The notes under the pieces were generated by a model that worked only from the letters and a program-made list of their open reading frames with translations, searched no databases and had not been told where the DNA came from. DNA of 64,000 nucleotides from Candidatus Yanofskybacteria bacterium (lineage in GTDB: Bacteria > Patescibacteriota > Minisyncoccia > 2-02-FULL-40-12 > IGHO2-01-FULL-4-A), in assembly GCA_016181175.1 (NCBI GenBank), contig JACOZV010000001.1:182185-246184 (forward strand). The letters are read 5' to 3'. This document shows, piece by piece, positions 13,981 to 59,089 of the stretch. The translations under genes were made by a program, and so were the position numbers. Each line of letters begins with the position of its first letter. Positions within the stretch are counted from its first letter, which is position 1.

Positions 13981-15830
13981 TGTTCCGGGATAGAAAATTA
14001 TGGCTGTTTTTTGTGGGCGCGATTGCGCTTAGTTTTTTGTTATATGGCAATAGTTTGGGCGGAGAATTTGTTTATGACGATAATTTTTTTTCCGATAGGC
14101 CGGAATTAAGGAATTCGACGCACTTTCTTCAAATATGGACCGAACCATACTTGCCGCAAAATCTGGCGGCCGGTCTTTATCGCCCCTTAGCTGTTTTTTC
14201 ATTTGTTCTTAATTTTGTTTTATTCGGCGAGTCACCGATCAGTTTTCACCTCATTAATATAATACTTAACGGCATTGTTATTTTTCTAGTCTTTCTTCTT
14301 GTCCTTAAAATTTTCGGTGACCGCAAACTCGCAACCATTGCCGCTCTATTTTTCGCCTTTTTGCCTATCCATACCGAATCTGTAGTGTTTATCAAGTCGC
14401 GTGACGAGATACTCGCGGCTTTATTTGCCATTTGGTCGTGGCTTTTATTTATCCCGAATGAGACCGCGAGGGCACGCAGCGTGCCTCTGTCTCGTACGGG
14501 ATTTATCTCCGCAACTGAAAAAATGGATTCATTAAACTGGAAAAAAATAATAGGCAGTGCCATCCTGTTTTTACTGGCGGTTTTATCCAAAGAGCTTATT
14601 ATTATTGTTCCGATTTTATTTTTGACAGTTTTTTGGATAAAGCAAAAACCGAAGTTTCCGTTTTTTCTGAAAGCGGCAAGCGGCTTTTTAATAACTGGAG
14701 CTTTTTATCTTTGGTTGCGCTTTCAAATTCTTGGGCCTTACGCTTTTGGCAGTGACAAGTCATATTTTGCCATTAATCCTTTGGGGTATGTAGATTTTCA
14801 AACAAGGATATGGACGGCTTTTAAGATTGCTTTTGTGTATATTGGCAAAACCTTTGTGCCGATAAACCTTTCGGCCACTTACCACTTTAACCATTTGACC
14901 TTAGTCGGCTATTTTTTTAATTCTTGGCAAACAGTTGCGGGTTTTGTTATTTTGGTTGGTTTACTTTTTTTATTTTTCTGGAAAAGAACCCGTCTGACTC
15001 CCCTGGGCATCGGCGCGCTTTCATTTCTGATTCCTTATCTGGTCATTTCTAAAATTATATTTAAATCAGGAGATATTTTAGCCGAAAGGTGGATGTATTT
15101 CCCATCCGTGGGTTTGAGCATTATGGCCGCTTATTTGATATTATTGGTTCATAAATGGAAAAAAATTACGGCTATTGCCATTTTTATAATTGTGCTTACG
15201 GCTTATGCGGTGACTATCATTTCTCGCAATAAAATTTGGCTTTCTGATGAAAACTTATTTCGCAGTATGATAAAAACCGCGCCGAACAGTGTCCAAGGTC
15301 ATTCCAATCTTGCCAATTTGTATATGCGTAACGGTAAAACCACAGAAGCGAAAATTGAAGCCGAGATCAGTTTCACAATAGATAAAGAATATCCGCCATT
15401 ATTGAATACTATAGGCGGCATTGCTTTTAAGGATGGTAATTATGATTTGGCCGAAACCGCGTTCCTTAAAGCCATTGAGTTGGCTCCACATATACCATTA
15501 GGATACATTAATGCCGGCCGATTGTATTATTTGACAGGCCAATATGAAAAAACAAAAGAGATGTTTGACTCGGCGCTTGGGGCGTACGCGCATCCAAAAA
15601 CCGAAGACGCTTTGATGTATGCTTTTGCATTAGCCAAGCTTAAGCAATATCAGGCAAGCATTGATACGGTGAATAAATATTTAGTCGGCAACTTCAGTGA
15701 TTCCCAGGTAAAAATGATTCTGGCCGTAGATTATTTTAAGATGGGCAATATGAATGAAGCAAGAAAATATTTTAACTGGGATTCTGGCAAATCCGAGGCG
15801 GAAAAAATAAAAATTTTGCAGGCATTCTAG
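13980..15830 (+). CDS. GT-C fold membrane glycosyltransferase, TMTC/DUF1736-like with C-terminal TPR repeats
   Basis: N-terminal 'GGEFVYDD' motif and about 10 TM helices followed by TPR repeats, the architecture of TMTC-type protein O-mannosyltransferases. The start is moved to the Met at 13980, which abuts the upstream stop. Confidence 0.55.
   Translation: MFRDRKLWLFFVGAIALSFLLYGNSLGGEFVYDDNFFSDRPELRNSTHFLQIWTEPYLPQNLAAGLYRPLAVFSFVLNFVLFGESPISFHLINIILNGIVIFLVFLLVLKIFGDRKLATIAALFFAFLPIHTESVVFIKSRDEILAALFAIWSWLLFIPNETARARSVPLSRTGFISATEKMDSLNWKKIIGSAILFLLAVLSKELIIIVPILFLTVFWIKQKPKFPFFLKAASGFLITGAFYLWLRFQILGPYAFGSDKSYFAINPLGYVDFQTRIWTAFKIAFVYIGKTFVPINLSATYHFNHLTLVGYFFNSWQTVAGFVILVGLLFLFFWKRTRLTPLGIGALSFLIPYLVISKIIFKSGDILAERWMYFPSVGLSIMAAYLILLVHKWKKITAIAIFIIVLTAYAVTIISRNKIWLSDENLFRSMIKTAPNSVQGHSNLANLYMRNGKTTEAKIEAEISFTIDKEYPPLLNTIGGIAFKDGNYDLAETAFLKAIELAPHIPLGYINAGRLYYLTGQYEKTKEMFDSALGAYAHPKTEDALMYAFALAKLKQYQASIDTVNKYLVGNFSDSQVKMILAVDYFKMGNMNEARKYFNWDSGKSEAEKIKILQAF
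14453..14500. repeat. 48-nt palindromic repeat element, family 2, in-frame copy inside the TMTC-like gene
   Basis: cccgaatgagaccgcgagggcacgcagcgtgcctctgtctcgtacggg. 16 codons. Confidence 0.75.
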
Positions 15831-15832
15831 AA

Positions 15833-57799: not shown

Positions 57800-57808
57800 T
57801 GCCAGGTA

Positions 57809-59089
57809 TTGAAACTTCATATGTTTTTGGCTAAAGACATCAGAAAATTGGAAAAATTAAACACAGCAAAAGACAATATTGCTGTTTTCGAAACGCCTTA
57901 TCCGGTTTTTAATGAGTTGAGCCTCGAAAAAACCGAAAGGAAAATGGTTATTTTTATGGGCCTTGATTTTCGTCTTTTTCCGGACTTGGACCAAAAAAAT
58001 TATATAGATGTTGAAAACAAATGCCTTGATTATGTTCGAAAAGAATGTGCTGACTGCGATCTCTATTACAAGCCGCATCCGGCGGAAAAGGATGAGCAAA
58101 ATTTTCTGAATCTGGCGTCTTTTAAATCCATTGATGACCCATCAATCAGCGAGTTTTTTATTATGAAAAATCTTTGCAAGATTCAGTACGTTTTTTCTCC
58201 ATTTTCGTGGATTTCAGTTTCAGCTTATGCAATGGGATTAAATTCTTTTGTGTTCTCCAAATTATTCAAAACGGCTATGGGCGAAGCGCGGGCTGACTTT
58301 TACGATGACTACTTCAAAGAAATGCCGCCGCAATTTTTTATAAATAATTTTGATCAAAAATTGATCGAGAATAAAAGGTTAATCGGAAAAGGGGAATTAT
58401 TTGAAAAAGAAATTAAAAATGCTCTCACTTTAAAAAAGGGTGCTGCTTGGTTTGTCATTGCCGATCCGGGATTCTTGCCAATTATTATTGCTATGACCCG
58501 TTTGATAAAAAGCATTGACCCCGAACGAGGCCGCGAGGGCACGCAGCGTGCCTCTGCCTCGTACGGGGTTGATCCCAGCCGCAAAACCAACTTAATAATT
58601 GTTCGTCATAATAGGTGGGATAAGATGAATATTGAGGAAATTAGGCCGTATTTTGATGGGGTCCATATATTTAAAAGAACTTTTTACTCCCTAAGGCCGC
58701 GTAAGATTTTTGATGCCGTAAAGATTGCTTTTTCCGCTAAGAAATTACCGATTGGCAGCGAAGGCATCATTTTCGGTTTCACCCATTCGGGCTTTTTAGA
58801 AAATTGTCTGATTTCTTATAACAAAGGAGCTATGAAAATATCGTGCCAGAACAAACTGAACCTGGAGTGGATGTATAGCATAAAGAGATCCGCAACTTTA
58901 AGCGATGACAAGTTTCATCAGATTAAATCAAACATTTTATACAACAGAATCCTAGAACCGCTATTGGGGCTGAACAAGACCTTGTATCTGAAATATGGAG
59001 ACGGAACTGTTTTAAATATCAGTCGTTACGAGAAACCCCTTAACGATGTATATGACAAAGTATACTTATTTGAAAATGCAAAATTCTAA
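57809..59089 (+). CDS. hypothetical protein, candidate GT-B nonulosonic-acid transferase
   Basis: No confident family assignment. It carries a 'YKPHPAEKDE' (HP) motif like 49500..50831, plus an in-frame 48-nt palindromic repeat at 58520..58567. Confidence 0.3.
   Translation: MKLHMFLAKDIRKLEKLNTAKDNIAVFETPYPVFNELSLEKTERKMVIFMGLDFRLFPDLDQKNYIDVENKCLDYVRKECADCDLYYKPHPAEKDEQNFLNLASFKSIDDPSISEFFIMKNLCKIQYVFSPFSWISVSAYAMGLNSFVFSKLFKTAMGEARADFYDDYFKEMPPQFFINNFDQKLIENKRLIGKGELFEKEIKNALTLKKGAAWFVIADPGFLPIIIAMTRLIKSIDPERGREGTQRASASYGVDPSRKTNLIIVRHNRWDKMNIEEIRPYFDGVHIFKRTFYSLRPRKIFDAVKIAFSAKKLPIGSEGIIFGFTHSGFLENCLISYNKGAMKISCQNKLNLEWMYSIKRSATLSDDKFHQIKSNILYNRILEPLLGLNKTLYLKYGDGTVLNISRYEKPLNDVYDKVYLFENAKF
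58520..58567. repeat. 48-nt palindromic repeat element, family 2, in-frame copy inside the hypothetical gene
   Basis: cccgaacgaggccgcgagggcacgcagcgtgcctctgcctcgtacggg. Compensatory gagAc/gTctc to gagGc/gCctc relative to the 14453 copy. It is read in a different frame from that copy. Confidence 0.75.

Follow-up and report, generated by a model that had tools for sequence, protein, structure and literature searches.

The window analysed here, 64,000 nucleotides from a Candidatus Yanofskybacteria bacterium (GenBank contig JACOZV010000001.1), contains two copies of a 48-nt palindromic sequence that lie in frame within two unrelated genes. This 48-mer is probably the core of a 50-nt, non-autonomous derivative, similar to a miniature inverted-repeat transposable element (MITE), of a mobile element that encodes a GIY-YIG nuclease, and such derivatives appear to be tolerated in coding sequence. 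An earlier note, made from the letters of the window alone, had described the 48-mer as a DNA- or RNA-level element. The finding is real and the core of that interpretation is supported: insertion polymorphism between genomes, a target duplication, covariation in the stem, nesting of copies, termini in common with GIY-YIG elements and the location of the inserts in loops were all observed.

Two inserts in coding sequence and their boundaries

The degenerate 48-mer matches the window at exactly two places, 14453-14500 and 58520-58567, both on the forward strand and both where the earlier note had put them, and gave no match in 100 dinucleotide shuffles of the window. Both copies are predicted to fold into the same stable compound hairpin, ((((.(((((((...((((.((((...)))))))).))))))).)))), with energies of -26.1 and -30.0 kcal/mol (z about -4). 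On inspection the 48-mer is much richer in GC than the window (approximately 40%), and Rfam and tRNA scans found no match anywhere in the latter. The mismatch in the stem, which had been described as A-T and as kept in all copies, is in fact A.A (hairpin position 5 versus 44) and is confined to Yanofskybacteria-type termini, copies with the termini CCCGTTAGAG/CTCTAACGGG being fully paired at this position. The copies, the genes that carry them and the flanking duplications are as follows, the duplications being assigned from empty sites in the nearest genome and from the duplication statistics given below:

13950-15830, forward strand: host gene 1 (626 amino acids), a GT39/PMT_2-like membrane glycosyltransferase with C-terminal TPR repeats, TMTC-like; the insert lies at about residues 167-184
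14453-14500, forward strand: core of copy 1 (48 nt), GAGACC/GGTCTC subfamily; full element 14452-14501 with a T...A terminal pair
14448-14451, forward strand: left TTTA duplication of copy 1
14502-14505, forward strand: right TTTA duplication of copy 1
57809-59089, forward strand: host gene 2 (426 amino acids), a hypothetical protein adjoining NeuB, with two Rossmann-like domains; the insert is residues 238-255
58520-58567, forward strand: core of copy 2 (48 nt), GAGGCC/GGCCTC subfamily; full element 58519-58568 with a C...G terminal pair
58515-58518, forward strand: left TTGA duplication of copy 2
58569-58572, forward strand: right TTGA duplication of copy 2

Both host proteins have exact database matches with HYT61_ locus tags from a Candidatus Yanofskybacteria metagenome-assembled genome (MAG). 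As the earlier note had recognised, the two hosts read the element in different frames: the 48-mer starts at codon position 3 (offset 2) in the open reading frame (ORF) 13950-15830 and at position 1 (offset 0) in ORF 57809-59089. Because of this, the peptides of the two copies, IPNETARARSVPLSRTG from copy 1 (..IPNETARARSVPLSRTGF.. in the ORF frame) and PERGREGTQRASASYG from copy 2, are unrelated. No stop codon occurs in any of the six frames of the element or of its consensus.

Comparison with orthologues, which the earlier note had proposed, located homologues of both hosts that have no insert. Where the element lies, exactly 18 residues are missing from all 15 aligned homologues of host 2, and the same gap is found in all but one (P0006; P and L numbers are used below for individual proteins and loci) of the 13 aligned for host 1. 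In the nearest genome, HYX20 (contig JACPNJ010000005), both positions are empty at the DNA level and lack exactly 54 nt, the empty site of host 1 lying at about 10470 in L010. The insertion is therefore 54 nt (18 codons) long and not 48 nt (16 codons), the length previously assigned to it. Both host ORFs are full length, with 80-85% identity to orthologues on both sides of the insert. Homologues without the segment, empty sites, copies in both coding and non-coding DNA and covariation in the stem all speak for a DNA-level palindromic element, as had been proposed, and not for a shared protein domain; the 48 nt did not turn out to be part of a conserved domain present in all homologues, nor were other copies lacking.

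Similarity detected by a repeat finder runs past the 48-mer into the direct repeats ATTTAT..ATTTAT and ATTGAC..GTTGAT, and the extent of the duplication was determined from 40 distinct members of the wider superfamily described below, comparing left with right flanks and using permuted flanks as a control. Flank positions 2-5 agree between left and right in 31, 33, 32 and 34 of the 40 members (12.5-13 in permuted flanks at the informative positions 3 and 4), while positions 1 and 6 agree in 23/40 and 21/40 (15.6 and 15.8 permuted). In 39/40 members the bases that precede CCCG and follow CGGG form a pair, with 22.8 expected. A 6-bp duplication was rejected in favour of a 4-bp duplication with a terminal Y...R pair, given that agreement at positions 1 and 6 is found in only about half of the members and Y-R pairing in 39/40. 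The 54-nt insertion is thus best described as a 50-nt element (Y-CCCG...CGGG-R) plus a 4-bp target duplication. The duplicated tetranucleotides vary and are mostly of the form T-N-N-A (TTTA, TTGA, TCAA, CTTA, TAAA, TGAA, TGGA), with CCCA and others also found.

In AlphaFold models both inserts fall in loops predicted to be disordered. The predicted local distance difference test (pLDDT) stays under 50 for residues 167-183 of host 1, in a loop between helices, and for residues 240-253 of host 2, in a loop between helix 220-235 and strand 260-266. The intact frames suggest that the inserts are translated and tolerated, and likewise that they would be present in the mature proteins. Host 2, which has no Pfam match, is modelled with a predicted template modelling score of 0.84 and its fold gives weak matches only, to capsule/Kdo glycosyltransferases (8qoy, KpsC/KrkA). 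NeuB lies directly upstream of it and a CTP_transf_3-type gene follows its HYX20 orthologue; from its model and surroundings, host 2 may be an uncharacterised nonulosonic-acid transferase.

Copies in other genomes and a superfamily with common termini

A search for the exact 20-nt core in one genome per GTDB species found nine places, all in MAGs of the Candidate Phyla Radiation (CPR; Saccharibacteria, Paceibacteria, Yanofskybacteria and Spechtbacterales), and a slightly relaxed core was found on 13 metagenome contigs. After removal of redundancy there are 22 distinct public copies, comprising 17 distinct 50-mers, besides the two in the window. The earlier note had suggested searching for further copies, and other genomes do carry the element in coding and non-coding positions. 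The copies fall into three classes: those in long ORFs (the two of the window, L004/L022, L009, L013 and L025), those that are intergenic, and those nested in larger relatives of 152-233 nt (L002, L006/L024 and L015/L019/L021), each of the nested copies having its own flanking duplication. The independent coding copies, five or six in number, all run in the sense direction, with four of them reading PERGREG.. and one ..NETARAR...

Across the 17 distinct 50-mers, 94% of the cells in the stem pair, versus 35-53% with slid partners. Within the outer stem (12-13 bp), 7 of 13 pairs change on both sides (32 cells), a degree of covariation that was reached in none of 500 shuffles, and the inner hairpin is invariant, partly because it served as the search key. 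The exchange gagAc/gTctc versus gagGc/gCctc, which the earlier note had taken for a compensatory mutation, is a real pair, but it marks a subfamily: GAGACC/GGTCTC is also found in L009, L015, L019, L020 and L021. A double mutation in situ is unnecessary for copy 1, since an independent copy (L019 168-215) matches it at 48/48 positions. Copy 2 is identical to copies in L005 and L025.

The only orthologue of host 1 with a filled site comes from genome HY454 (P0006; L013 8600-8647). Its copy differs from copy 1 at 10/48 positions, carries the other subfamily marker and has a weaker predicted fold (-17.5 versus -26 kcal/mol), and is still in frame. The filled state is not monophyletic, because the HY454 host protein is closest to the empty-site homologue P0003 (88.8%), with 83.8% identity to the window protein. 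Two independent hits at the host 1 site are probably to be favoured over two precise losses, as subfamily markers and ages differ. A single ancestral insertion shared with HY454 is disfavoured, with the filled hosts not being sisters, the markers differing and the decay amounting to 0-1 versus about eight changes.

Two further roles were considered for the element and rejected. The flanks in L005 and L008 resemble TTGACA-17-TATA, which would suggest a mobile promoter, but the orientation of the genes is unsuited to this. Transport by phages was rejected on the absence from IMG/VR of the core and of GIY-YIG relatives; the one superfamily member seen in that database is an unrelated 54-nt sequence (L044 556-609) that has termini of the TTAG type, another interior and a duplicated TCTG and lies on a 5-kb contig classed as viral. 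In L005, L008 and L022 the sequence CGGGGTTGRC to the left of the 48-mer mimics the right end of an element.

A scan for palindromes of the form CCCG-arm...arm-CGGG found five members in the window versus 0-1 in shuffles. The common termini, either CCCGTTAGAG/CTCTAACGGG or CCCG(A/T)ACGAG/CTCGTACGGG, enclose 48-278 nt, and no credible element of larger size (421-4000 nt) was found between them. Judged by its termini, the 48-mer is the smallest member of a superfamily that extends across the Patescibacteria and whose interiors are interchangeable. The earlier note had set it apart as a second family; a DNA element it is, but not a separate one, as the 72-nt 'first' family (69 nt from CCCG to CGGG) belongs to the same superfamily. 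The elements are modular, because the same 24-nt core stands between TTAG-type termini in Saccharibacteria and is joined to a second hairpin in L016/L018. The remaining members in the window are these:

13186-13254, forward strand: 69-nt member with termini CCCGTTAGAGGT/ACCTCTAACGGG and flanks ATGGAT/ATGGAT, directly 5' of the true start codon at 13255
16936-17004, forward strand: second 69-nt member, inside the PMT_2 gene 15833-17422, with no flanking duplication
41763-41876, forward strand: 114-nt member with 48-mer-type termini CCCGAACGAAGT/ACTTCGTACGGG, filling the gap from the stop codon at 41761 to the ATG at 41877

A start codon directly adjoins many of the longer members (..CGGG|ATGAA..), with the terminal A and a TGAA duplication rebuilding the ATG. 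In this way insertions regenerate their own target, and therefore elements pile up before start codons. In L027 a 107-nt member (2894-3000) stands in tandem with a GIY-YIG member (3007-3284), both of them flanked by ATGAAT. Relatives of the 114-nt member (150-230 nt; L002, L004, L006 and L015) have the same placement relative to genes and contain AT-rich, promoter-like stretches (TTGATA..TAGTAT). The annotated ORF 13180-13980 begins at the duplicated ATG, and its homologue aligns only from M26 (13255). The first 25 codons consist of the 69-nt element and the ATGGAT duplication, so this N-terminal extension is probably either an artefact of annotation or a novel leader peptide. At 16936-17004, 25 element-encoded residues (ALPLEVSLATLSRVRRTLAGLLLTG) stand in place of about 18 in the homologue, some of which belong to a hydrophobic segment.

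GIY-YIG elements and a possible mechanism

At the place where the window has its 69-nt element, 5' of the gene at 13255, HYX20 carries a 278-nt member (L010 8879-9156) whose interior is a single ORF of 88 amino acids with a GIY-YIG domain (PF01541, E = 1e-16). An empty site was sought in L010 for this element and for the 69-nt element, with alignments too diverged to decide. Relatives were examined in four further contexts (L027, L029/L031, L034/L035 and L039-L043), and in all five the coding members are 275-278 nt long and contain one ORF of 86-95 amino acids for a Slx1-like (UPF0213-type) GIY-YIG nuclease. Each of the following elements is in gene orientation and lies directly 5' of a host start codon:

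L010 8879-9156: GIY-YIG element
L027 3007-3284: GIY-YIG element
L029 2986-3263: GIY-YIG element
L034 2986-3263: GIY-YIG element
L039 3007-3281: GIY-YIG element

The five contexts are built alike, as T-CCCGTTAGAG(C/A)C..ORF..G(G/T)CTCTAACGGG-ATGA or as CCCGTACGAACC..GGTTCGTACGGG. In the former, the left end T-CCCGTTAGAG(C/A)C is followed by 3 nt and then ATG, the ORF end ..L-(A/S)-L-T-G is encoded by the right terminus G(G/T)CTCTAACGGG-A, and the stop is the TGA of the host ATGA, giving a 4-nt overlap with the downstream gene. The ORFs of L027 and L039 use the duplicated host ATG as their start and run on through the left terminus (MNPVR..). The ..TG* C-terminus recurs in 108/120 of the closest cluster representatives and the MNPVR start in 27/120. 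HYX20, the sister genome, has two GIY-YIG paralogues, P0149 (..LALTG, with TTAG-type termini) and P0191 (..LVRTG, TACG-type), and these terminus types correspond to the two miniature families of the window.

More than 1,600 GIY-YIG homologues were found, most of those with a source name being from CPR. The proteins of these elements are often called 'excinuclease ABC subunit C' in their sources, probably a misnomer. Among 38 sequences, the catalytic-type residues Y6, Y17, G19, H31 and E64 are invariant and R27 nearly so, and R63 is invariant as well. The best solved relatives are minimal Slx1-like UPF0213 proteins (1zg2 and 1ywl; BH0048, E = 5e-12, and EF2693), followed by SLX1, and matches of the CPR protein on plasmids are of the YazA type. 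Several of the GIY-YIG elements lie within sugar-nucleotide or glycosyltransferase clusters. A more distant GIY-YIG ORF (L021 3889-4146, 52% identity) is bounded by a different inverted repeat of 19-20 bp (TCCCCACACCATAACGAGCC / GGCTCGTTTGGTGTGGGGA, L021 3831-4158), which suggests that further pairs of nuclease and terminus may exist.

In the probable mechanism, the 50-nt element inserts with a 4-bp target duplication, each insertion adding 54 nt (18 codons) that would be read as an 18-residue hydrophilic loop, with the frame neither shifted nor ended. The frame survives because the element has no stop in six frames, and this frame neutrality probably allows it to persist inside genes of a gene-dense CPR genome, as Rickettsia palindromic elements persist in theirs. 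The 275-278-nt members, with the GIY-YIG ORF as their only gene, are the likely autonomous form, and in them the terminal A of the element and a TGAA-type duplication supply both the stop of the ORF (TGA) and the start of the host gene (ATG). The nuclease would recognise the terminal hairpin or a cruciform and mobilise long and miniature forms alike, an action that we infer.

Several points weigh against this mechanism. The reaction of GIY-YIG nucleases is DNA hydrolysis, strand transfer is not known from them, and GIY-YIG homing enzymes typically leave a 2-nt 3' overhang, unlike a 4-bp duplication; neither property accounts for the chemistry of integration. No GIY-YIG gene is present in the 64-kb window (part of a 374,535-bp contig), and at each end no more than about 12-13 nt are common to the miniature and the GIY-YIG forms. 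Translation of the inserts, moreover, is deduced from intact reading frames. Finally, the 24-nt inner core is identical across CPR classes, in part because copies were sought by exact match; if it is real, this identity hints at a function of the inner hairpin that a pure 'junk' model would not foresee.

It is quite possible, though somewhat less likely than not, that these elements form a class of bacterial transposable element not described before. The sole protein of this class would be a minimal, structure-specific, Slx1-like GIY-YIG nuclease; it would parasitise host start codons by taking its stop from the duplicated target and giving an ATG to the host; and its hairpin derivatives, stop-free and a multiple of three in length, would colonise CPR genes. 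Full-text literature searches found no description of MITEs or of GIY-YIG-bounded elements in CPR.

Alternative explanations and comparison with known systems

Alternatively, an unseen transposase (DDE, or RAYT/IS200-like HUH) could move the element in trans as a conventional MITE, the GIY-YIG ORF being cargo or a separate parasite, an explanation that we regard as unlikely. Terminal inverted repeats with a fixed 4-bp duplication are the classical signature of a staggered-cut transposase, GIY-YIG enzymes are not known as transposases, and the window has four or five elements and no GIY-YIG gene. Against this, 370 kb of CPR DNA yielded no ORF-bearing element with these termini apart from the GIY-YIG elements, and the ORF fills the element exactly, with its C-terminus coinciding with the terminus in 108/120 homologues, which is hard to reconcile with passive cargo.

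The general resemblance to MITEs is close, as the terminal inverted repeats, the fixed 4-bp duplication and the small, dispersed, non-coding copies are all present. The termini are common with 275-278-nt GIY-YIG elements in 5 contexts, and these would be the autonomous partner if their nuclease acts as a transposase. Bacterial MITEs such as Correia/NEMIS, ERIC and the Coxiella QMITE (PMC10969869) likewise have inverted termini shared with a longer coding element, a duplication, dispersed non-coding copies and occasional in-frame gene fusions. Their usual length is 100-400 bp, compared to 50 nt here, and the candidate autonomous partner here is 278 nt long and encodes a nuclease and not a DDE transposase. 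With REP/REPIN-RAYT and IS200/IS605 systems the element shares short hairpin repeats tied to one small nuclease gene that they flank, and recognition is likely via a DNA hairpin in all of them. Those systems differ in using HUH/Y1 enzymes, in lacking target duplication, in having a fixed tetranucleotide neighbour and in being extragenic. Here variable tetranucleotides are duplicated, which speaks against insertion of the IS200/IS605 type.

It is rather improbable that the hairpin is a structural motif selected by the host and spread by recombination, whether as an Ssn-like site for a single-stranded DNA (ssDNA) nuclease that modulates uptake or recombination near surface-glycan loci, or as an mRNA hairpin with an effect on stability or translation. 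The strong maintenance of the stem by covariation, the 24-nt inner hairpin identical across CPR classes and the sense orientation of all five or six coding copies would fit such a motif, as would the clustering of elements and GIY-YIG genes in glycosylation and sugar-nucleotide loci, which recalls the NTS repeats near surface-protein genes of Neisseria (PMC11893778). The HY454 copy, however, has shed much of its structure in a gene that is still intact, and there is for that reason no site-specific constraint on the copy; the closest relatives manage without the insert, and target duplications and nesting are signatures of insertion.

The SRM consensus, HGTCWYN(0-2)YYVSBRHN(0-5)WNVSBRGN(0-2)RNCYNB, is matched nowhere in the window, nor by either of the 48-mers taken together with the flanks. 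The element was not identified with SRM repeats on this ground, although Ssn/SRM is still the closest published framework. In the Ssn system, GIY-YIG nucleases of about 94 amino acids cleave ssDNA next to hairpin repeats located on both sides of the nuclease gene, and the authors, noting an IS-like 'repeat-gene-repeat' layout, raised an IS-like origin without testing it (Chenal et al. 2025, PMC11893778). In common with it, the CPR elements have a single-domain GIY-YIG gene of about 90 amino acids with dispersed hairpin repeats, and repeats near genes for surface structures. The flanks of the Ssn gene are each a complete short hairpin, whereas those of the CPR gene are the two arms of one hairpin, and only 2% of NTS repeats lie in genes, compared to a substantial share of the copies recovered here. 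Neither target duplication nor in-frame insertion is described for the Ssn repeats in that work, which does not mention CPR.

The in-frame insertion into many genes matches that of the Rickettsia palindromic elements (RPEs) of Alphaproteobacteria, described as about 100-150 bp long and with no established mobilising enzyme in what their review reports (Ogata et al. 2000, reviewed in PMC10969869). Going by these descriptions, both are palindromic, occur in frame in unrelated genes, are translated as fold-compatible segments and inhabit small, gene-dense genomes. As far as description allows comparison, the present element differs by its 50 nt, clear 4-bp duplication, CPR host and termini common with a GIY-YIG element.

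Small palindromic repeats that enter coding sequence also have precedents in other organisms. Mobile GC clusters of yeast mitochondria are palindromic units of tens of nucleotides in AT-rich genomes, found nesting or in coding sequence, and very small dispersed repeats of cyanobacteria, palindromes of tens of nucleotides reportedly described by Elhai et al. in 2008, are said to insert into other repeats or coding sequence. These have other hosts and other termini, and we know of no GIY-YIG element reported for them.

Removal of the insert before the mature protein, either by a ribosome hop between duplicated codons as in T4 gene 60 or by excision of an RNA segment, is very improbable: the length of about 50 nt, the strong hairpin, the identical TTT ATC codons flanking copy 1 and the mobile-element-associated 50-nt bypass reported in phage T4 (bioRxiv 10.1101/2022.08.31.505936) are reminiscent of it, but no stop follows the putative take-off codon or occurs in any frame, the flanking codons of copy 2 differ (GAC versus GAT), six open frames and insertions only of multiples of three would be superfluous if the segment were skipped, and the decayed HY454 copy is still in frame.

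A frame-neutral unit of 50 nt shows one route for selfish DNA into CPR/Patescibacteria, whose tiny, gene-dense genomes are thought to be poor in transposons, and it creates length variation in surface-glycosylation enzymes. Its association with a 278-nt element whose only gene is a minimal GIY-YIG nuclease extends the link between repeat and nuclease known from Ssn and its hairpin repeats to a new bacterial radiation, with insertion signatures absent from the Neisseria system, and makes the idea that such nucleases drive the dispersal of repeats directly testable. Among the consequences for the annotation of MAGs are spurious N-terminal extensions, glycosyltransferases with 'insertions' and the misnomer 'excinuclease ABC subunit C'. 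Natural pairs of nuclease and hairpin may moreover serve as ssDNA tools.

Other repeats were also noted. The HY454 orthologue of host 1 contains a second extra segment (L013 8786-8845, ..SKFLDMPSASAPLAPVQKL..) with two small palindromes, GTCCAAATTTTTGGAC and GCGCCTTTGGCGC, which may be another family of hairpin elements, and the corresponding position of P0003 holds an extra segment of another kind. Repeats of the AGTTACYAGTTACC type, direct and inverted, occur in the window at 28018-28105, 34646-34733 and 59859-59898, some of them apparently inside ORFs, and coding tandem repeats (TTATCCAACCTATTCTCCATACCCAACTGGTTCC, rich in Pro/Tyr/Ser/Thr) are found at 26457-26973 within the 1009-amino-acid ORF 24532-27561.

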